Notes: generated by a model not told the origin, from the sequence alone. A stretch of 64,000 nucleotides of DNA from an uncultured Bacillota bacterium (GCA_947385365.1 CANDKT010000002.1:5024-69023), one strand, 5' to 3'; positions 26,154 to 36,675 are shown, counted from the stretch's first letter. Translations and numbers: made by a program.

Positions 26154-28748
26154 ATGGATATGAACCAACTGACACAAAAATCTCTTTCCGCGGTCCAGAC
26201 GGCCAGAGATCTGGCCCAGGAACACGGACAGCAACAGATCGAACCGCTGCATCTTCTCTTAGCGCTGGTCAGCGACAAGGAGGGGTTCATCCCCCAACTG
26301 CTGACGGCAATGGGGATGACCGTCCCCAGCTTCGAGGCGGCGGTGCAGGCGGAGGTGGACAAACTGCCCAAAGTGTCCGGGACCGGTCGGGAAGCGGACA
26401 AAATCTATATCACGCCGGGCTTGGACCGGGCCATGCGGGCCGCGGAGCGTATGGCGCAGTCCATGAAGGACGAGTACATCTCCGTGGAACACCTTTTCCT
26501 GGGCCTGCTGGACCAGCCGGACGGCGTCCTGAAGGAACTCTTCCGGACCTACCAGCTCACCCGTGAGAAGGTCATGCAGGCGTTGGCGTCGGTGCGCGGG
26601 AATCAGCGCGTGACCAGCGACAACCCGGAGGAGACTTACAACGCTCTGAAAAAGTACGGCACGGACTTAGTGGAACGGGCGCGGCAGAATAAAATGGACC
26701 CGGTCATCGGCCGGGACGACGAGATCCGCAACGTCATCCGCATCCTGAGCCGGAAATCGAAGAATAACCCGGTCCTCATCGGAGAACCTGGCGTAGGCAA
26801 AACCGCCATCGCCGAAGGCTTAGCACAGCGCATCGTGAAAGGGGACGTGCCTGTTTCCTTAAAGGACAAGACCATCTTCGCCTTGGATATGGGCGCGCTC
26901 ATCGCTGGGGCCAAGTACCGCGGCGAGTTTGAAGAACGCCTCAAAGCGGTCCTCAACGAGGTCAAGAAATCGGAGGGGCGCATCCTGCTGTTCATCGACG
27001 AGCTGCACACCATCGTCGGCGCGGGCAAGACGGAGGGCAGTATGGATGCAGGCAATCTGCTGAAACCTATGCTGGCCCGCGGCGAACTGCACTGCATCGG
27101 CGCGACGACTTTGGACGAGTACCGGCAGTACATCGAAAAGGACGCCGCCCTAGAACGCCGCTTCCAACCGGTCCTGGTCAGCGAACCGTCCGTGGAGGAC
27201 GCTATCGCGATCCTGCGGGGCCTCAAAGAGCGTTACGAGGTGTATCACGGCGTGAAGATCACCGACGGCGCGATCATCGCCGCCGCGACGTTGTCGAACC
27301 GCTACATCACTGACCGCTTCCTGCCCGATAAGGCCATCGACCTGGTGGACGAAGCCTGTGCCATGATCCGTACCGAGATGGACTCCATGCCAACCGAGCT
27401 GGACATCATCCAGCGGAAGATCATCCAGCACGAGATCGAAGAGGCCGCGCTGAAAAAGGAGACGGACCCGTTAGCCAAGGACCACCTGGCGGAGATCCAG
27501 CGGGAACTGGCCGGACTGCGGGAGGAGTTCAACGCCAAGAAAGCCCAGTGGGACAACGAAAAAGGCGCAATCGGTAAGGTCCAGAAGCTCCGGGAGGACC
27601 TGGAAGCGGCCAGCGCGGCCTTGGAGAAGGCTCAGCGGGAGTACGACCTGGAAAAGGCCGCCGAACTGCAATATGGCCGTATCCCGGAGCTGCGCCGCGC
27701 CCTGGAAGCCGAAGAGGCGGTCGCAAACGAGGGGAGAGCGCGTTCGTTGCTCCGGGACAAGGTCACGGAGGAGGAGATCGCGCGGATCATCGAACGCTGG
27801 ACCGGTATCCCGGTGTCCCGTTTGATGGAAGGGGAGCGGGAGAAGTTGCTCCACCTGGAAGAGATCCTGCACCGCCGCGTGGTGGGACAAGACGAAGCGG
27901 TCCGTTTGGTGAGCGAATCCATTTTACGTTCCCGGGCGGGCATCGCGGACCCGGGGAAACCAATCGGTTCCTTTTTGTTCCTGGGACCCACGGGCGTGGG
28001 CAAGACGGAGCTGGCAAAGACGTTGGCAGAAGCTCTGTTTGACAGCGAAAAGAACCTGGTCCGTATCGACATGAGCGAATATATGGAGAAGTTCTCGGTC
28101 TCGCGTCTCATCGGCGCGCCTCCGGGCTACGTCGGCTACGAGGAAGGCGGGCAGCTCACCGAAGCGGTGCGGAGAAAGCCCTACTCAGTGGTCCTGTTCG
28201 ACGAAGTGGAAAAGGCGCATCCGGACGTGTTCAACATCCTGCTGCAAGTGCTGGACGACGGGAGGATCACGGACAGTCAAGGGCGGACGGTGGATTTCAA
28301 GAACACAATCCTGATCCTGACGTCCAATCTGGGCAGCCAAGCGTTGCTGGACGGGATCGGAACGGACGGGGAAATCTGCGCGGAGGCGCGGGAACAGGTC
28401 GGGCAGCTGCTCAAGCACGCGTTCCGTCCGGAGTTCCTGAACCGCCTGGACGAAATCGTCTTCTACAAGCCGCTCTCGCGGGAGAACATCACCCACATCA
28501 TCGACCTGCTGACGGACAGCTTGAACAAGCGTTTGGCGGACCGGCAGCTGCGCGTGGTCCTGACCCCGGACGCAAAGCAAGCGATTGTGGACGCGGCTTA
28601 CGACCCAGCCTACGGCGCGCGGCCGCTGCGGCGTTACCTCCAGCACACGGTCGAGACCTTGATTAGCCGGAAGATCATCGCCGGCGAGGTGGAACCCAAT
28701 ACCGTACTCACAGTGGACAGCCAAGGCGGAGAATTGACGGTCCAGTGA
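26154..28748 (+). CDS. clpB: ATP-dependent disaggregase ClpB
   Basis: Two AAA modules (GEPGVGKT and GPTGVGKT) and a long coiled-coil middle domain. Confidence 0.97.
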
Positions 28749-28757
28749 TTGCACTCA

Positions 28758-28791
28758 GCCGCCGCGCCCGGACGGGCGCGGCGGTCTTTTT
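28758..28791 (+). terminator. Intrinsic terminator after clpB
   Basis: CCGCCGCGCCCG-GA-CGGGCGCGGCGG followed by TCTTTTT. Confidence 0.8.
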
Positions 28792-28903
28792 GAAAAAATT
28801 TTTCGGTTTGGTGTACGGAAACGTCCCCAATCCAGGCTGGTTTTCCCTATTAGTAGAAGGACCTTTTTGGAGTCCTGATTCAAAATCAAAGGGGGAACCT
28901 GAA

Positions 28904-29389
28904 ATGGCAAGCAAAAAAACGAAACACTACCAGCTCAATCAGTGGGAACCAGACGATGCGGTCCTACGGAACGATTTCAACGCGGACAACCTGAAACTCG
29001 ACGCGGCCTTGGCCGAGAAAGCCGAACGGTCCGCGTTGACCGCTTTGAGCCAGACCGTGGCCGCAAAGGGGAACTGTTCCATCGAAACGGGCAGCTACAT
29101 CGGCACCGGCCAGTCCGGACAGGCAAATCCCTGCCTCCTGCGCTTTACCGGTAAGCCTATGATCGTCTTCCTGGGAACAGATCATATGTTTGATTACAAC
29201 AGTATCCCGGAGTATTACATCCTCTTCCGGGGCGCGCCCTACCTCCACGCCCGCTCCACCCAAGGCGGCCTGCCGTTGACCTGGATGGAGAACTCCGTAT
29301 CGTGGTATTCCAACGACCGTTACCGCGGCCCGGAAGCCCAGTTCAACCTGGACGGCGTCGAATACCAGTACATCGCGCTAGTCATCTGA
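28904..29389 (+). CDS. Hypothetical protein with phage tail-fibre-like N-terminal motif
   Basis: MASKKTKHYQLNQWEPDDAVLRNDFNADNLKLDAAL, then a short coil and a GSYIGTG beta-rich C-terminus. Confidence 0.6.
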   Translation: MASKKTKHYQLNQWEPDDAVLRNDFNADNLKLDAALAEKAERSALTALSQTVAAKGNCSIETGSYIGTGQSGQANPCLLRFTGKPMIVFLGTDHMFDYNSIPEYYILFRGAPYLHARSTQGGLPLTWMENSVSWYSNDRYRGPEAQFNLDGVEYQYIALVI

Positions 29390-29396
29390 GGACGCG

Positions 29397-29432
29397 CAAA
29401 GCCCCTCGGACCGATGGTCCGGGGGGCTTTGC
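29397..29432. terminator. Bidirectional hairpin terminator at the end of the left S-layer gene
   Basis: CAAAGCCCCTCGGACC-GAT-GGTCCGGGGGGCTTTG, near-identical to 35352-35386. Confidence 0.75.
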
Positions 29433-29469
29433 CGTATCATTGGGTCTTGAGGGAAACCGAAGAGGCGGT

Positions 29470-32091
29470 TTACTCACCTGCGGTCGCGCTGGTCAGGAAG
29501 ATGCACACGGCGCCGTCTTTGGAGACGTTCATGTACAGGGTAGCTTCCTCGATGCGGCCATTGTCCAGGTTGCGGCGCACGGCGTCCAGGCTGCCCAGAG
29601 CGCTGCTGTACTGGTCGTCCTCGTCACGGTCGTCCTTGGAGCGGACGTCGGTGAACTTCGCGTCGGAGACGTCGATGTCCTGAACCTCGTACTTGCCCAG
29701 AGTGACAGTCAGCAGATTGTCATACAGGTCGTTCTTGTCGTCGAAGATGACGCCAGCCAGAACGCCTTCGTCCTTGTCATCCTGCCAATCCAGGTTGCCG
29801 GTAACGGTCATGGCCTCGGCCTCGTCCAGCTCATAGTAGCCGTCGTCGTTGGTGCCGTAGGTGTAGAAAGCGGGAGTCTTCAGGCCGTCGCTGCCGTACT
29901 CGCCTCCGTCGATCTGCCAGGTCTCCTTGCTGCCGTCAGGCAGATAGACGTCCTGGTCACGGTAGCCGTCGCCGCGCTCGCTGCTCTCGGACTTCACGAA
30001 GATGACGTCTTCGCTGAACTCAGTCTTCTGGTCGGCGTCGTTCACGCAGAACAGAACGTAGCTGGCAACGGAGGAGCCGTCTTCCGTAATCACGATGGCG
30101 GAATTGACTTCGCTCTTGTAGGACACGCCGCCGACGTAACGGGACACGTCCAGGTCATTTCTGGTGTCTTCCAGGAAGAGGTACACGGTGGAGGAGTTCA
30201 AACGCTTGGAAGAGATACCAGGAACGTTAGAGAGGCGGGTAGCGGACTTGCTCAGGTCAGGAGTGAACTTACCGGTGCTGGTATACACATCCCAATCCTT
30301 ATCGGACCAAGTCTTGAGGTTCCACTTATCGTTGTTGGCCTTGCTGTCGCCGGTCTTCTTGTCGGAGATGGTGACGAGCGAGCCGCTCAGAGCGTCGAAG
30401 TCATATTTGCTGGCGCTCAGGTCATTTTTACCGGTGCCGAGTTCGTGATCTTTCGTTTCCAGTTTGTACTCAGCCTTGGTGCCGTCGTCCAGGGAAACCA
30501 GCTGAGCGTAGTAGGAGGTCACGTCAGCGCCAGCGACGGTGTTGGTCTCATTCCAAACCACGTCCACATAGTAGACGTCGCTCAGGTCGGAAGAAGCCTC
30601 GATGCCTTCGATAGCCAGGATGCGGTTGTCCTTATCCAGGTACAGGCGATAGCTGTCGTCGGAGCTGGTGGAAACCTTATCGACTGCGGTGAAGTCGCCA
30701 GCGGTGTCGATGGTACCGGCGGCGTAGTAACGCTGGCCGTCCACGACGACGGACTCGGCGTTCTTGCGGGTGCTGATGGAGCCTTCGACGGTCTCGGGGA
30801 TGAAGGAGTCGATGATATCGCCGTCGTCATTGACGACCAGGGCGACGTAGGCGTCCTCGACGTAAGTGTCGGGGTTGAAGCCGGGGATATCGGTGTTCTT
30901 GATGTCGTCGCCGGAGTTATCGAAGTTGACGTAAGCGGAGACGCCCTTCTTGGAGTCGCTGGAGGACACGTCGTCGTCGACGTCGGTGATCTGGTCCAGA
31001 ACGTAGTTGTAAGCAACGACGCGCTCGATTTCGTCGGGCTCATTCTCGACCATGAACAGCTCGTAGGTAGTGCCATAGGTGGCCTCTGCCTTCAGGTCAG
31101 CAGCGGACTTCTCGTCGCCGTTGAGCCAGAACTCAGCTTTGTTCTCCAGGTCATTGGGGTAGGTCAGGTCGTCGTTGTCAGCCAGATCCTGAAGGACATC
31201 CAGAAGGGACTTGCTCTTGTTCTTATCGTTGGTGTAGATATCGTTGACGACCAGGACCTGATCGGCGGCGTCACCATAAGTACCAACTTCGCTGCCCTTG
31301 TACTTCCACTGGGTAGCGGAACGGCCGAAGCTGTCTTCCTTCTTGGTGAACTTCTCCAGGTCGCCGTCGTACAGCTCTTCGCCCAGCTGGATGACATTGG
31401 TATCGCCAATCTTGGTGAACTTCTTGCCGGAACCGGTGCGGGGGCTGTAGGTAGCGCGGCCAGCGACCAGATTGCCATCAACGATGGTCACGCCGCTGTT
31501 GCCGTTGGGAGCCACGGCGTCCGCTTCCAGAGTGTTCAGAATCATCTGAGCGACCTGGTTACGGGTCAGGGCTTCGATTGCGCCGTTGTCAACGCCGTCG
31601 AAAATGCCGTTCTGAGTGCCCAGCTTGGTGGTCTCGACCAGCCAGTCATCGCCGAAGTCGCCCTGGTACTGGAAGTAACCCAGAGCTTTCATCAGCATCA
31701 GAGCAGCCTGGCCAGTGGTGACGGAGTTATCGCCGCCATACTGGGTAGCGCTCATACCAGCGACGATGCCGTTGGTATAGCACGCGGCGACGTAGTCGGC
31801 GGCCCAGTCAGGCACATCGGTGAAGGGCGCGGTGCCCTTGTAGCTGGAGACGACGTAGTCCATCAAGTTACACATGATGACGGCCATCTCGTTACGGGTG
31901 ACGTTCGCGTCGGGATTGAAGTTGCCCTTCTCGTCGCCGGTCATGATGCCGACGGCCTGGAGAACTTCAATGGCTTCGGTGTTATGCTCGGAAGCCACAT
32001 CCACATAGCTCGCAGAGGTACCCACGACCATCATGCCCATAAGCATGACAGAGGAGAGCGCCAGGCTGAGAGCCCGCTTCAAGTTTCTCAT
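29470..32091 (-). CDS. S-layer protein variant A (signal peptide, N-terminal SLH repeats, acidic body), 873 aa. Predicted ON in this assembly.
   Basis: MRNLKRALSLALSSVMLMGMM signal. SLH motifs GIMTGDEKGNFNPDANVTRNEMAVI, GIVAG..VTTGQAALML and LTRNQVAQMI. Strong AAAGGAGG RBS. Highly biased C-ending codons. Confidence 0.9.
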   Translation of the reverse strand: MRNLKRALSLALSSVMLMGMMVVGTSASYVDVASEHNTEAIEVLQAVGIMTGDEKGNFNPDANVTRNEMAVIMCNLMDYVVSSYKGTAPFTDVPDWAADYVAACYTNGIVAGMSATQYGGDNSVTTGQAALMLMKALGYFQYQGDFGDDWLVETTKLGTQNGIFDGVDNGAIEALTRNQVAQMILNTLEADAVAPNGNSGVTIVDGNLVAGRATYSPRTGSGKKFTKIGDTNVIQLGEELYDGDLEKFTKKEDSFGRSATQWKYKGSEVGTYGDAADQVLVVNDIYTNDKNKSKSLLDVLQDLADNDDLTYPNDLENKAEFWLNGDEKSAADLKAEATYGTTYELFMVENEPDEIERVVAYNYVLDQITDVDDDVSSSDSKKGVSAYVNFDNSGDDIKNTDIPGFNPDTYVEDAYVALVVNDDGDIIDSFIPETVEGSISTRKNAESVVVDGQRYYAAGTIDTAGDFTAVDKVSTSSDDSYRLYLDKDNRILAIEGIEASSDLSDVYYVDVVWNETNTVAGADVTSYYAQLVSLDDGTKAEYKLETKDHELGTGKNDLSASKYDFDALSGSLVTISDKKTGDSKANNDKWNLKTWSDKDWDVYTSTGKFTPDLSKSATRLSNVPGISSKRLNSSTVYLFLEDTRNDLDVSRYVGGVSYKSEVNSAIVITEDGSSVASYVLFCVNDADQKTEFSEDVIFVKSESSERGDGYRDQDVYLPDGSKETWQIDGGEYGSDGLKTPAFYTYGTNDDGYYELDEAEAMTVTGNLDWQDDKDEGVLAGVIFDDKNDLYDNLLTVTLGKYEVQDIDVSDAKFTDVRSKDDRDEDDQYSSALGSLDAVRRNLDNGRIEEATLYMNVSKDGAVCIFLTSATAGE

Positions 32092-32137
32092 TGGAAATTC
32101 CTCCTTTATGTTTCGGGTCTGTCTGCGGACCGGTTTT

Positions 32138-32163
32138 GCAAGGGGAGTGCCACTCCCCTTACA
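32138..32163 (-). repeat. Left inverted repeat (IRL), putative recombination core site
   Basis: GCAAGGGGAGTGCCACTCCCCTTACA is the exact reverse complement of 32497-32522. It is internally palindromic (AAGGGGAGTG-C-CACTCCCCTT). Confidence 0.9.
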
Positions 32164-32212
32164 GGGGGGGCGTGCTTCGCCGCACACGGTCCACTTCCGA
32201 ACCTCTGGCGAT

Positions 32213-32241
32213 ATTTTAGCAAATCAATTTTTGAATGTCAA
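32213..32241 (-). promoter_or_regulatory. Near-consensus sigma-A promoter facing the left S-layer gene
   Basis: Minus strand TTGACA-TTCAAAAATTGATTTGC-TAAAAT: 17-bp spacer plus extended -10 TGn. Confidence 0.85.
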
Positions 32242-32355
32242 CAGGAGAGACAAAAGTGTAACAAACCTGTAATAATCCCCTCCCGCGCCGCCTAAGCCGT
32301 CTGCAACAGACCGGAGAATCGCCTTCCAGCCCACAAAAACAGCCGAATTTACAAC

Positions 32356-32452
32356 GTCTACCAAACGTCTACCATCCCCTACCCCCCGCCGCTTGCTGCA
32401 CAGCCTGTCCAGCTCCATCTACCGGAACCTGGTCTACCAAATGTCTACCAAA
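32356..32452 (+). repeat. Paired direct repeats GTCTACCA(AA), putative integrase arm-type sites
   Basis: Copies at 32356, 32367, 32432 and 32443 (two pairs, each 11 bp apart), plus a degenerate ATCTACCG at 32417. Confidence 0.7.
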
Positions 32453-32496
32453 CACCTCAAAATCCGCCCCTATACCTTTAAATATAAATACCCCTA

Positions 32497-32522
32497 TGTA
32501 AGGGGAGTGGCACTCCCCTTGC
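32497..32522 (+). repeat. Right inverted repeat (IRR), putative recombination core site
   Basis: TGTAAGGGGAGTGGCACTCCCCTTGC. Confidence 0.9.
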
Positions 32523-32567
32523 GCACCGGAACGCGAAAGAACCCGAAACATAAAGGAGGAATTTCCA

Positions 32568-35318
32568 ATGAGAAACCTGAAGCGGGCTCTCAGTCTGGCG
32601 CTGTCCACCGTTATGCTCATGGGCACAATGGTCGTCGGCTCTTCTGCGAGCTATGTGGATGTGGCTTCCGAGCATAACACCGAAGCCATTGAAGTTCTCC
32701 AGGCCGTCGGCATCATGACCGGCGACGAGAAGGGCAACTTCAATCCCGACGCGAACGTCACCCGTAACGAGATGGCCGTCATCATGTGTAACTTGATGGA
32801 CTACGTCGTCTCCAGCTACAAGGGCACCGCCCCCTTCACCGATGTCCCTGACTGGGCCGCCGATTACGTCGCCGCGTGCTACACCAACGGCATCGTCGCC
32901 GGTGTCAGCGCGACTCAGTACAACGGTGACAGCTCCGTCACCACTGGCCAGGCCGCTCTGATGTTGATGAAGGCTCTGGGTTACTTCAAGTACCAGGGCG
33001 ACTTCGCTGATGACTGGCTGGTCGAGACCACCAAGCTGGGCACTCAGAATGGTATCTTCGACGGCGTGGACAACGGCGCTGTTGATCCCCTGACTCGTAA
33101 CCAGGTCGCTCAGATGATTCTGAACACTCTGGAAGCCGACGCCGTGGAAGCCAATGGCAACAGCGGTGTGACTATCGTTGACGGTAACTTGGTCGCTGGC
33201 CGTGCTACTTACAGCCCCCGTACCAATGCCAACGATAAAAAATTTGGCAAAATCGACAACGAAAAAACTTACAATTATGACCGCTATATCATCCAGTTGG
33301 GCGAAGAACTTTACGGCGGCGATTTGGAAAAGAACGCCAGTGAGACTGACGACTTTGGCCGTCCTGCTACCCAGTGGAAGTACAAGGGCAACAACGTTGG
33401 CAAATACGGTGAAACTCCTGATTACGTTTTGGTTGTTGCTGACGACTATACGAAGAAAACTGACCTGCGAGCAATTCTCCGGGATGTAGCTGACAACAAT
33501 TCCTTGGAACTGACATATCAATATGAGAATGATAATGGTCGGATAGTTACTGCTGAGGCTGAATATTGGCTCAACGGCAACAACACAAAGGAAGACAACG
33601 ATAACGAAGTGGATTTGGAATCTGCTGACCTCGCTAAGGATGTTGCCACCTATGGCACTACTTACGAGTTGTACATGGTTGAGAATAAACCTGACGTAGT
33701 TGAGAAAGTTGTTGCTTATAACTACAAGCTGTATCAGATCACTGATGTTGACACTGATGTGTCCTCTGGCGATTCTAAGAAGGGCGTAAACGCCTATATT
33801 TCCTTCGATGCGGATATCAGCGATGCAGTCAACGATACAGATATTCCTGGCTTCAATTCTGAGACCTATGTCGAAGATGCTTATGTGGCTATGATTGTCA
33901 ATGACAAACAAGAAGTTGTCGACTCTTTCATTCCTGAGACCATTGAAGGTTCTGTGGGAACCAAGAAGGGTAGCGAGAATGCCAAGGTCGAGTCTCTCAC
34001 TATGGACGGCGATCGTTACTACACTGCTGGTACTATGAGTGACTCTAGCGACTTTGTTTACACGACAAGACAGGTAGAGACCGGTTCCGACAATACCTAT
34101 CGTCTGTACCTGGACCACAACAACCGTATTCTGGCCGTTGAGGGTGTTGAGGCTGTTTCCTCTCTGGGCGATGTCTACTTTGTGGACACGATTTGGAAAG
34201 GCAGCGATACTGTTGCTGGTGTTGACACGGAACCCTATTTTGCTCAGTTGGTTTCCCTGGAAGATGGCACCAAGGCTGAGTATAAGCTGGAAAAGGACAA
34301 CCACAAGAATGGTACCGAAACCTTGGATGGCCAGACTGCTGACCAGCTGAACAAAACTTTCGGAAAGCAACTGGTTACAATTTCCGATAAAAAGGAAAGC
34401 ACTAAGGGTACCGACTATAGCAGTAAGGCCAACAACGATCAGTGGAACCCGAAGATGTGGGAGACTAAGAATGATTGGACAGAGAGAACTGATGAGTTTT
34501 CTGATCTGACATTAAAGAAGTCCACCAAGAGCATCGCAGTTGATGGAGAGACCTATCGTTTGAACTCTTCCACTGTGTATCTGTTCCTGGAGAAAGAAAA
34601 GAATGATTTGAGCGTGTCCCGTTATGTTGGCGGCGTTTCCTACAATACAAAGGATAACGTTATTGTCACTGCTATCAAAGAAAAAGACGCCGATGTGGCT
34701 AGCTATGTTCTGTTCCGGGTTAGTGACGCTGACCAGGCCGCTGAGTACAGTGAGGATGTCGTCTTCCTGTACAGCGAGAGCAGTGACATTGGTGATGGCT
34801 ATCGTGACCAGACAGTCTATCTGCCCGACGGCAGTGAAGAGACTTGGCAGGTCGTTGATGGTGAGTTCGAGGGAACTGGTTTCTACACCTACACTACCAA
34901 TGACGACGGCTATTATGAATTGGAACTTGCTAGTGAGATGAAAGACACAGCCAACCTCAGTTGGGACGACGAAGAGGGCGTGTTGAGTGCTTGGATTTTC
35001 AGCAACAAGTCTCAGCTGTTTGAGAATTTCCTGACCGTGACTAAAGAGAACGGAAGGGTTTCCGACATTGATATTTCCAACGCCGTATTCAAGGATGTGC
35101 GCGATAAGGACGATCGTGGTGCGAACATCGAAGGTACAAATTACAAGGAATACAGAAGCGCTTTGGGTAGCTTGGACGCTGTGAAGCGGAATATGGGCAG
35201 CGAGAAGAGAGACGACATCGTAAGTGCTGAACTGTACCTGAATGTTTCCAAAGACGGTGCTGTAACTATCTTCCTGACCAGCGCTCCGTCTCTGAAAGCG
35301 GACGTACCCCAAGATTAA
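32568..35318 (+). CDS. S-layer protein variant B, 916 aa. Predicted OFF in this assembly.
   Basis: About the first 219 aa are nearly identical to variant A (signal + SLH). The remainder is colinear but diverged, with AT-richer codons. Confidence 0.9.
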   Translation: MRNLKRALSLALSTVMLMGTMVVGSSASYVDVASEHNTEAIEVLQAVGIMTGDEKGNFNPDANVTRNEMAVIMCNLMDYVVSSYKGTAPFTDVPDWAADYVAACYTNGIVAGVSATQYNGDSSVTTGQAALMLMKALGYFKYQGDFADDWLVETTKLGTQNGIFDGVDNGAVDPLTRNQVAQMILNTLEADAVEANGNSGVTIVDGNLVAGRATYSPRTNANDKKFGKIDNEKTYNYDRYIIQLGEELYGGDLEKNASETDDFGRPATQWKYKGNNVGKYGETPDYVLVVADDYTKKTDLRAILRDVADNNSLELTYQYENDNGRIVTAEAEYWLNGNNTKEDNDNEVDLESADLAKDVATYGTTYELYMVENKPDVVEKVVAYNYKLYQITDVDTDVSSGDSKKGVNAYISFDADISDAVNDTDIPGFNSETYVEDAYVAMIVNDKQEVVDSFIPETIEGSVGTKKGSENAKVESLTMDGDRYYTAGTMSDSSDFVYTTRQVETGSDNTYRLYLDHNNRILAVEGVEAVSSLGDVYFVDTIWKGSDTVAGVDTEPYFAQLVSLEDGTKAEYKLEKDNHKNGTETLDGQTADQLNKTFGKQLVTISDKKESTKGTDYSSKANNDQWNPKMWETKNDWTERTDEFSDLTLKKSTKSIAVDGETYRLNSSTVYLFLEKEKNDLSVSRYVGGVSYNTKDNVIVTAIKEKDADVASYVLFRVSDADQAAEYSEDVVFLYSESSDIGDGYRDQTVYLPDGSEETWQVVDGEFEGTGFYTYTTNDDGYYELELASEMKDTANLSWDDEEGVLSAWIFSNKSQLFENFLTVTKENGRVSDIDISNAVFKDVRDKDDRGANIEGTNYKEYRSALGSLDAVKRNMGSEKRDDIVSAELYLNVSKDGAVTIFLTSAPSLKADVPQD

Positions 35319-35351
35319 ACCCCTAACTCTCCGCAACTTTTCCTAAGCGAA

Positions 35352-35386
35352 CAAAGTCCCCCGGACCGATGGTCCGGGGGCTTTGC
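35352..35386 (+). terminator. Hairpin terminator after the right S-layer gene
   Basis: CAAAGTCCCCCGGACC-GAT-GGTCCGGGGGCTTTG. Confidence 0.75.
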
Positions 35387-35518
35387 GTATGCGGGGAGAA
35401 ATTTTGAAGAAAAATGTAGAATCACCTTGAAAAAAGAGACAGCGTGGGATTATGCTATAGAAGGATGGAATAATTTGCCGGACATCCAGTCCGCAACACC
35501 AAAAGGAGGAAGATCACT

Positions 35519-36634
35519 ATGGCAAGAAAAACCGTGGAACGCAACATCTCCTATGACGACATCCGCCGCCGCTGGTACGTGAGTATGGACCTGGGCCGGG
35601 ACGATCAGGGCAAACGGCGGAAACGTTACCGGACTTACACCAGCCTCCCCGCCGCCCGCGCCGGACTGCGCGAGTTCCTCTCACACCGCGAACAGGAAAT
35701 CTCCCTCTGCCGCTGCCCCATCACACTCGGACAGTGGCTGGATCAGTGGATGCAGACCATCGTTCGCCCCAACCGCGCCGAAACTACCGCCTACGCCTAT
35801 CAGAAAATTATCGACAACCACCTGCGCCCCGCCTTGGGGGATCGCCCCTTGCTGCGCCTCACCCCCGGCGATATCCAGCAGTACTACCTCCGCGTCCAGC
35901 AAGACGCCGGGTTGTCCTCCAATACCTTGCGCCATCACCATAATTTGCTCTCTTCCGCTTTCCGTGCCGCCGTAAAACAAAATATCTTGCTCCGCTCCCC
36001 TATGGACCGCGTGGAACCCCCTCGGGCCAGACTCCACGAAACCAATTTCTATAGCCCCGATACCCTCAAACGCCTCTATAGCCTCCTGGCCGGACGCCCC
36101 CTGGAACTGCCCGCACGCCTGGCCGGCAGCCTCGGCCTGCGACGCGGCGAACTGTGCGGCCTGAAATGGGAAAACGTCGATTTTCAACGACAGGTGATCT
36201 GTATCTGTGAGGCCCGCACTACCTTCGGCGCAGAGGTCGTCCAAAAAGAACCCAAAAATAACGCCTCCGTCCGTACCCTCTACATACCAGACGAAATCCT
36301 TCAACTCCTTAGCTCCGAGTGGAACCGTCAACAGTATTCCCCCCAACCTCTCGACGGCTACGTCATCCGGAACCGGAAAGGTCAGCCTTACTCCCCAAAC
36401 GCCCTCTCCCTCGCCTTTACCCGCTTCGTTCGGAAAAATCACCTGCCTTGCCTTACCCTCCACGGCCTCCGGCACTCCTTCGCTACCGTCGCCGCTTGCC
36501 AGGGCGTCCCCCTCTTCGATATCGGTAAAGCCCTCGGCCACGCCAACCCATCCACCACTGGCCGTATCTATACCCACCTCGTCGACCGTACCCACACCGA
36601 AACCTTAACCCGAGTCTCGAACGCACTCCGTTAA
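35519..36634 (+). CDS. Tyrosine recombinase/integrase with N-terminal arm-binding-like domain
   Basis: Catalytic set intact: GLRRGE (R), EPK (K), HGLRH, LGH, TTGRIYTH (Y). N-terminal WYVSMDLGRDDQGKRRKRYRT is typical of ICE/phage integrase arm domains. AAGGAGG RBS. Confidence 0.95.
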   Translation: MARKTVERNISYDDIRRRWYVSMDLGRDDQGKRRKRYRTYTSLPAARAGLREFLSHREQEISLCRCPITLGQWLDQWMQTIVRPNRAETTAYAYQKIIDNHLRPALGDRPLLRLTPGDIQQYYLRVQQDAGLSSNTLRHHHNLLSSAFRAAVKQNILLRSPMDRVEPPRARLHETNFYSPDTLKRLYSLLAGRPLELPARLAGSLGLRRGELCGLKWENVDFQRQVICICEARTTFGAEVVQKEPKNNASVRTLYIPDEILQLLSSEWNRQQYSPQPLDGYVIRNRKGQPYSPNALSLAFTRFVRKNHLPCLTLHGLRHSFATVAACQGVPLFDIGKALGHANPSTTGRIYTHLVDRTHTETLTRVSNALR

Positions 36635-36639
36635 TCAAA

Positions 36640-36675
36640 ATTCCCCCAGACCTAATCAATAGGTCCAGGGGAATC
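36640..36675. terminator. Hairpin between the convergent integrase and rnj genes
   Basis: ATTCCCCCAGACCTA...TAGGTCCAGGGGAAT. Confidence 0.55.

Follow-up and report, generated by a model that had tools for sequence, protein, structure and literature searches.

We analysed a stretch of 64,000 nucleotides from an uncultured Bacillota bacterium (GCA_947385365.1, CANDKT010000002.1:5024-69023), referred to throughout as the window, in which two head-to-head genes for S-layer proteins with SLH domains are separated by a 333-bp segment bounded by perfect 26-bp inverted repeats (IRs). The two genes are termed geneL and geneR, and the repeats IRL and IRR. An intact tyrosine recombinase gene begins 200 bp past geneR; its neighbours are housekeeping genes (those for ClpB, RNase J and a nucleotidyl transferase) and no phage or integrative and conjugative element (ICE) genes are present. 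An earlier reading of this DNA, made without any comparison to other genomes (the sequence-only reading), had described the gene pair, the repeats and the intact recombinase in these terms, and all of them were recovered in our analysis. The coordinates of the features are given in Table 1. We propose that the locus belongs to a genus-wide switch by which this gut bacterium very probably swaps its outer coat through DNA inversion.

Table 1. Features of the S-layer locus, in window coordinates. T1 and T2 are the two modules of the central segment, as described in the text.
Feature	Coordinates	Strand	Remarks
Terminator hairpin 3′ of geneL	29403-29431		Inverted copy of 35352-35380 (29 nt, 83%)
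geneL, SLH S-layer gene	29470-32091	−	873 aa; lies on the T1 promoter in all data sets examined
Left 5′ arm (ribosome-binding site (RBS), signal peptide, SLH anchor)	31435-32134		Exact 188-nt tract 31829-32016; exact 36-nt RBS block 32083-32118
IRL, core site	32138-32163		Plus strand: 9-mer GCAAGGGGA, 7-mer GTGCCAC, 9-mer TCCCCTTAC
Candidate invertible segment	32164-32496		333 bp; T1 and T2 back to back
T1 promoter	32213-32241	−	−35 TTGACA, 17-nt spacer, TG-extended −10 TAAAAT
T1 upstream operator-like 19-mer	32254-32272	−	TTAC-N5-TGTTACACTT; S-layer-linked form TGTTACA; match G000:C2:37277-37295
T2 tandem 1, candidate arm-type site	32356-32374	+	GTCTACC twice, 11-bp period
T2 tandem 2	32432-32461	+	GTCTACC twice plus a degenerate third unit
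IRR, core site	32497-32522		Reverse complement of IRL
Right 5′ arm	32525-33224		Exact 36-nt block 32541-32576; exact 188-nt tract 32643-32830
geneR, SLH S-layer paralogue	32568-35318	+	916 aa; joined to the T2 module
Terminator hairpin 3′ of geneR	35352-35380		Inverted counterpart of 29403-29431
Tyrosine recombinase, lambda/Tn1549-Int type	35519-36634	+	Pfam Phage_integrase and SAM-like domains

The proteins encoded by geneL and geneR are 63% identical overall and ∼95% identical across their first 215 residues. The 26-bp IRs form the inner tips of a 2.9-kb inverted duplication (29403-32169 and 32491-35380) that includes the terminators of both genes. Within this duplication the two 5′ arms, each of 700 nt, share 91% identity and include stretches of 36 and 188 nt that match exactly, so that conserved 5′ regions in opposed cassettes surround a unique promoter. 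The IRs are perfect, whereas the adjoining 19 bp toward the RBS differ between the two sides, and each IR is itself palindromic and can be read as 9-7-9. As expected of an inverton, short inverted repeats thus flank a promoter-bearing segment. No further copy of the 26-bp palindrome was found in the 2.69-Mb assembly or in the 111 other genomes of the genus searched, and a scan of JGI metagenome contigs for the 26-mer gave no match. Exact look-ups of geneL, geneR and a neighbouring 214-aa reading frame gave no other contig, and the protein clusters contain only the window's own copies.

The segment between the IRs is composed of two modules placed back to back, which we term T1 and T2. T1 forms the half that faces geneL. 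Its promoter (32241 to 32213 on the minus strand) matches the sigma-A consensus at 11/12 positions and has the TG extension, and the best candidates on the plus strand match at 9/12; the claim of the sequence-only reading that one strong sigma-A promoter is aimed at the left gene therefore holds. The geneL-facing half can be aligned, over the 19-mer and the −35 and −10 elements, with the promoter region of relatives' main S-layer gene, which usually lies directly after the RNase J gene rnj. The 19-mer pattern was matched in 75 of the 112 genomes of the genus, with the S-layer-linked form occurring once per genome; in many genomes a look-alike of it is also found elsewhere. A second conserved 19-mer, TTACGGATTTCTTACATTT, is present once per genome in ∼25 genomes at a non-T1 locus (e.g. 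G009:C1:2710790 and G005:C111:15026). This sequence resembles the T1 operator and may be a second target of the same regulator.

The half that faces geneR was thought to hold no promoter comparable to that of T1. This part of the earlier view stands, but the half is not empty: it carries a genus-wide module, T2, which is recognized by its tandem GTCTACC repeats. Pairs of GTCTACC tandems ∼75–78 bp apart occur in 68 of the 112 genomes with 2–16 hits each, where a control pattern gave near zero. Of 16 informative canonical T2 copies, 14 lie 190–410 nt upstream of an SLH gene. The copies are found at dispersed loci beside unrelated housekeeping genes, and the T2-linked genes are spread over up to 0.9 Mb in one genome (G042). 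No sigma-70 promoter match was found in T2 of the window or of G014, G050, G042 and G009, and in most species a terminator-like hairpin is positioned between the second tandem and the leader. On contigs shared by both modules (eight genomes), T2-linked genes are inverted relative to T1 in ∼21 cases and direct in 5, a ratio that could be confounded by strand bias and on which we do not rely. There are two S-layer genes in the present genome and three to nine in relatives; across the genus there are many cassettes, not the two of a binary A/B toggle. In this genome the GTCTACC tandem is found nowhere except inside the segment. A role of the T2 repeats as a regulon operator was considered and rejected, since the tandem is confined to the segment here and loose matches numbered 6 against 8 for the control.

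In all the species examined, T1 and T2 end in a common core consisting of the 9-mer G[C/T]AAGGGGN followed by the 7-mer GTNNNAC, and the GTCTACC tandems lie 48–190 nt from this core in every T2. The core motif falls inside the 26-bp IR of the window. The 7-mer is the same in all the copies of one genome and varies among genomes, with GTTATAC, GTTATGC, GTTGTAC and GTGACAC found in relatives and GTGGCAC in this genome. In this species the gene-side flank is now an inverted copy of the 9-mer, which gives the 26-bp palindrome.

The sequence-only reading had proposed that the orientation of the segment be compared across related genomes, and homologous blocks were indeed found in both orientations in two congeners. 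In the species represented by G047, the block has the order T2, response regulator gene, ArsC-like gene, rnj, T1 and sits between two head-to-head S-layer genes. Among contigs whose RNase J is identical to that of G047, two (L214 and L215) have the same pair of flanks with the T2-rnj-T1 block turned round between them: the flanks align inverted at 97% identity, the block collinearly at 94%. The difference is a clean inversion of a 4.2-kb promoter block. Across ten strains of the G047 species different genes are joined to T1, and the genes and flanks to either side vary by strain. In the G041 species the pattern recurs with four different partner loci, among them one beside the rpoA-L17 operon.

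The position of the crossover could be mapped in two NCBI assemblies of a congener (GCA_008727735.1 and GCA_003202955.1), which have contigs of 2.88 and 2.92 Mb. A gene encoding a 992-aa protein with a unique 58-nt leader is on T2 in GCA_008727735.1 and on T1 in GCA_003202955.1. When the gene was compared strain with strain, identity was 37–42% upstream of the core and 100% from +60 on; when the same module was compared, identity was 100% upstream and 50–70% downstream. The module-specific 9-mers remain with their modules across the exchange. Since the identity profiles switch at the core and the 9-mers stay in place, the crossover lies in or immediately beside the 7-mer. In the congener the 7-mer is flanked by unrelated sequence, and the event was conservative site-specific recombination, not RecA-type crossing-over.

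Further rearrangements were seen in the same two assemblies. Tandem T2-linked S-layer genes, direct to T1, are present at 12219-21659 of L219 (GCA_008727735.1) and at 1-8200 of L218 (GCA_003202955.1), and a gene for a 954/953-aa protein that one strain has on T1 is linked to a different T2 in the second strain. This pattern is easier to explain by cassette excision and re-insertion than by inversions alone. In G014, the T1-linked gene (L185) has the T2-type letter in its 9-mer, GCAAGGGGC instead of GCAAGGGGA, and its leader is identical to that of T2a (L186), so one exchange must have extended to within 8 nt of the end of homology.

The recombinase is of the lambda/Tn1549-Int type and has intact catalytic motifs. 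Its catalytic set (R208, K246, H315, R318, H341 and Y351) is invariant in 17 orthologues, and the alignment to PDB 6emy spans GLRRGE, PK, HGLRH, GH and IYTH. Among solved structures the nearest are Tn1549 Int and lambda Int; a fold comparison of the predicted model placed full-length lambda Int among the top matches, with low TM-scores (template modelling scores). In the AlphaFold2 model, residues 3–62 form four strands and a helix with a predicted local distance difference test (pLDDT) score of 74–88, and an N-terminal arm-binding domain is probable from this model. A heterobivalent integrase of this kind needs arm-type repeats, which makes the GTCTACC tandems obvious candidates. A promoter-like sequence, TTGAAA-17-TATGCT, is present at 35420-35470, ∼60 nt upstream of the start codon, and the gene is thus probably transcribed from a promoter of its own. 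The recombinase gene and rnj share a bidirectional terminator hairpin at 36640-36675.

The recombinase had been described as an adjacent orphan. This did not survive comparison with relatives, in which a full-length orthologue (56–73% identity) is present in ∼70 of the 112 genomes: it is a genus-conserved gene that is normally located elsewhere, and only in this genome does it adjoin the S-layer pair. Its flanks are housekeeping genes both here and in 29 relatives, with no sign of a mobile element bounded by att sites. The locus at which it usually lies, beside a gene for a flavin adenine dinucleotide (FAD)-dependent protein, is present without the recombinase on contig C66 of this genome, indicating that the gene moved next to the S-layer pair. 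Synteny of the recombinase with the gene pair in relatives, which the sequence-only reading had anticipated, therefore fails, and co-variation with T2 takes its place. Among 70 genomes, the recombinase and T2 occur together in 44 and are both absent from 19; only the recombinase is present in 5 and only T2 in 2, of which one (G073) is an off-type match. On an rnj tree of the 70 genomes, each trait changes 14 times; in nine independent contrasts across supported branches, T2 changed in the same direction as the recombinase in ∼7 and in the opposite direction in ∼0 (median p 0.016). These values were obtained with a single-gene tree and a strict T2 pattern.

Taken with the genus-wide anatomy, the most probable interpretation of the locus, which we put at about 0.62, is that it represents, in its most compact form, an S-layer expression-site switch found throughout the genus. 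Each genome has one T1 module, consisting of a strong sigma-A promoter and an operator and normally located beside rnj, together with one to eight spare SLH genes that are each preceded by T2. Conservative site-specific recombination within the 7-mer would exchange the sequences downstream of T1 and T2. Where T1 and T2 are back to back between inverted cores, as here, one such event would flip the 333-bp segment, moving the promoter from geneL to geneR, with no expression of whichever gene is then on T2. The probable catalyst is the integrase beside the pair, and the GTCTACC repeats would be its candidate arm-type sites.

Several observations, here and under the two alternatives that follow, weigh against this interpretation. 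No flipped junction was found for this species in the metagenome-assembled genome (MAG), in DNA runs X2 and X3 (Logan contigs), in an ENA contig (L086, 99.4% identity over 31912-32591) or in RNA run X6, all of them shallow data; the five data sets all show the reference junctions that join T1 to geneL. The notion of one promoter switched between two S-layer genes by inversion is thus strongly supported by comparison with congeners, but not by a flip in this species. The congener metagenome contigs could themselves be misjoined at repeats, an error to which the large NCBI contigs are less exposed. The recombinase gene is divergent from the FAD-dependent gene in 25 of 29 relatives and is never beside SLH genes or rnj. 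Its match to Pfam Arm-DNA-bind_4 (E 0.0099, 15.9 bits) is below the cut-off of 22.3 bits, and binding of the enzyme to the repeats and cleavage within the 7-mer are presumed activities.

The single orientation should be read in the light of Lactobacillus acidophilus, where only 0.3% of chromosomes carry the silent S-layer gene in the expression site (PMC3666127); at such a frequency, a single orientation in shallow data is uninformative. Only the reference form was seen in the five data sets, and a further run, X1, was ambiguous. In X1, the four leading letters of a contig over 32138-32526 mismatch the left flank and the next contig begins exactly at IRR. This is the pattern expected at k = 31 from a second, flipped junction, but the letters are unreadable. 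On the comparative evidence, we consider that the segment very probably does flip in this species. A loose end in run X3 at 32432 has 20 unmatched letters that are identical to the spacer before tandem 2 of the G009 T2, indicating that a congener sharing only the tandem was present in the same sample.

The RNA data concern mainly geneL. Contigs from run X6 cover the body and leader of this gene, and one of them bridges the 5′ end of geneL, the leader and IRL as far as 32197, ∼8 nt short of the predicted T1 transcription start. The X6 share of words was 0.24, about what geneL alone would give. No RNA contig covers 32198-32550, and this uncovered part is no evidence and was not used as proof that geneR is silent. 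As the contigs show neither RNA ends nor levels, and the body of geneR is outside the stretch compared, we infer mutual exclusivity, in which the T2-linked gene would be the silent one.

The first alternative, which we regard as unlikely, is that inversion or gene conversion at this locus occurs mainly by a RecA-type route between the 700-nt 5′ arms, in the manner of the sap system of Campylobacter fetus, with the recombinase irrelevant to the locus. The 91% identity of the arms and their exact runs are in its favour, and the arms evolve in concert. In a second strain (L013 and the only X2 contig over the tract), the 188-nt tract has five substitutions and the same end points, from which it follows that the two copies are homogenized within each strain; the 5′ arms at this locus do show gene conversion. 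In addition, contig L013 breaks exactly at the start of the tract. Finally, G084, a 93% complete genome with T2 modules in which no recombinase orthologue was found, has flanks exchanged relative to its sister species G014: comparison of G014:C1 3.28-3.39 Mb with G084 C17, C6 and C8 (L185-L190, L207 and L208) shows that the T1 gene and one T2 gene have swapped their downstream flanks. This is as expected for a ∼100-kb inversion with ends in S-layer genes, although a misjoin is possible and the support is weak because the G084 MAG contigs end in repeats.

What the RecA-type route does not account for is the crossover in the congener, which lies at a 7-mer amid unrelated sequence, outside long homology, and is no RecA substrate. 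Nor does it explain the conservation of T2, the co-variation of T2 with the recombinase, or the presence of a perfect 26 bp beside 19 differing bp. In the window itself, long arms adjoin the sites. The proposal that the IRs are the recombination sites is supported by a congener crossover at the motif inside the IR, but the 700-nt arms offer a second, RecA-type route, and the C. fetus-like and site-specific routes to inversion or conversion may coexist here.

Slightly less likely again is a static pair, in which geneL is transcribed from T1 and geneR from a factor-dependent promoter in T2, the 26-mer is a stem-loop shared by the 5′ ends of the two mRNAs, and the recombinase has another function. 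The single orientation in five data sets is consistent with this arrangement, as is the dispersal of T2-linked genes in G042, and the GTCTACC direct repeats with their 11-bp period resemble response-regulator binding sites. In the window, T2 is without the hairpin found in other species, and a TATAAAT box precedes the core by 8 nt; geneR may therefore be expressed to some extent independently. In the leaders of both genes the palindrome can form a stable RNA hairpin of 12 bp, and this hairpin alone could account for its conservation. Stable 5′ leaders are described as typical of S-layer mRNAs (Boot 1996, in the reference list of PMC3666127). The geneL leader is unusually structured (z = −3.9) and, together with the hairpin, leaves room for a role of the RNA; an Rfam search of 31900-32800 matched no family. 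A static pair would, however, be difficult to reconcile with the homologous T1/T2 blocks that flip in congeners. It also has to contend with T2 modules that lack a sigma-70 promoter in four other genomes and usually end in a terminator-like hairpin, with the co-variation of T2 with the recombinase rather than with an obvious regulator, and with the confinement of the GTCTACC tandem to the segment in this genome. Integration of geneR and the recombinase as a cassette at the T1 core was rejected, since the genome holds no third copy of the core.

Returning to the expression-site switch, a more far-reaching version of it is possible and is advanced here only tentatively. A domesticated, arm-binding integrase of the lambda/Tn916 type would run the system across the genus, with T1 as the single socket and the T2 modules as docking sites bearing the arm-type repeats of the enzyme; recombination at a 7-bp overlap would produce inversion at inverted cores, and excision and re-insertion of whole S-layer cassettes at direct cores. 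If true, the cell coat would be served by a cassette exchanger resembling an integron, and no tyrosine ‘invertase’ system before it would have been arm-dependent.

By analogy, the closest parallels to the system are the single-expression-site families of mycoplasmas and, in L. acidophilus, S-layer inversion; its enzyme type, its T2 module and its dispersed cassettes set it apart from both. The vsa genes of Mycoplasma pulmonis, with the recombinase HvsR, have the same single-promoter surface-gene layout as the vpma genes of Mycoplasma agalactiae. In the latter, a single expression promoter serves several surface-protein genes and the tyrosine recombinase Xer1 acts at a short site in the 5′ untranslated region (UTR) (PMC5634654). 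The likeness lies in one promoter, several complete genes, a recombination site in the 5′ UTR and an inversion that moves the promoter. Unlike vpma and vsa, the genes considered here belong to a Gram-positive-type gut anaerobe and code for S-layer proteins anchored by SLH domains, and the spare genes carry a tandem-repeat module. The enzyme also differs from Xer1 in being of the lambda/Tn1549-Int type with a probable arm-binding domain in its model. As the cassettes are often dispersed, flips could span tens to hundreds of kb, unlike those of the mycoplasmas.

In L. acidophilus, inversion of the slp segment swaps an expressed and a silent S-layer gene, slpA and slpB (Boot et al. 1996; PMC3666127). 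Both systems have oppositely oriented S-layer genes and a single expression site, with interchange by inversion. There, a 6-kb segment containing the gene bodies flips past a fixed promoter, whereas here a 333-bp promoter segment would flip between fixed genes. For L. acidophilus, neither a dedicated recombinase nor arm sites have been described. The sap system of C. fetus is RecA-dependent and involves type I secreted proteins without signal peptides and a 6.2-kb segment with sapCDEF. Its promoter segment between opposed S-layer cassettes, its conserved 5′ regions and its use of further cassettes through nested inversions are similar to what is seen here, but the congener crossover at a 7-mer without flanking homology is not.

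Among Clostridia, the RecV switches of Clostridioides difficile, including cwpV, use a tyrosine recombinase and short IRs upstream of a cell-wall protein gene (PMC2784873). A conserved chromosomal recombinase acting in trans (here presumed) and short IRs are common to both; the cwpV switch, however, turns one gene ON or OFF and does not exchange alternatives, and no arm-type repeats are known there. With lambda Int and Tn916/Tn1549 Int (PDB 1z1b and 6emy), the enzyme shares its best sequence and fold matches, intact catalytic motifs and, in the model, an N-terminal β-sheet and helix resembling the arm-binding domain, as well as tandem direct repeats near a core with a 7-bp overlap-like centre. 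Unlike those integrases, it is found outside phages and ICEs, with no xis gene or att-flanked element, its chromosomal position is conserved across the genus, and it appears to give rise to inversions and cassette exchanges that involve host genes.

Searches of the full-text literature found no description of this S-layer switch system, and SLH proteins are among the families enriched near predicted inversions in one survey (PMC9881135). S-layers form the outermost surface of many gut Clostridia and are a likely target of phages and of host immunoglobulin A (IgA). Programmed coat exchange has been documented only in a few distant organisms, namely C. fetus, L. acidophilus and, for lipoproteins, mycoplasmas. 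The T1 and T2 modules, the core with its 7-bp crossover region and the conserved integrase define searchable sequence rules in a large genus of abundant gut anaerobes, from which the state of the switch can be scored in metagenomes. With 385 bp and one enzyme gene, the window provides the smallest natural substrate for reconstitution. If the proposal is true, the system would show a lambda-type integrase with arm sites re-used for the switching of host genes.

Two minor observations concern genes near the S-layer loci. In a strain of the G041 species, the S-layer gene on T1 is followed by a gene for a serine resolvase and by a short SLH gene (L226, ERZ28626140, 11597-13720), an arrangement that looks like a mobile insertion in the S-layer region. 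In the window, the plus-strand open reading frame at 28745-29389, listed as 214 aa, probably starts at M54 (MASKKTKHYQLNQW...). Pfam and NCBIfam gave no match for its product, which belongs to a family of small proteins of 136–150 aa (MASGQT...GLNQW...); members of this family are convergent directly after many SLH paralogues in relatives (G050 L117/L118 and G042 L122/L125).

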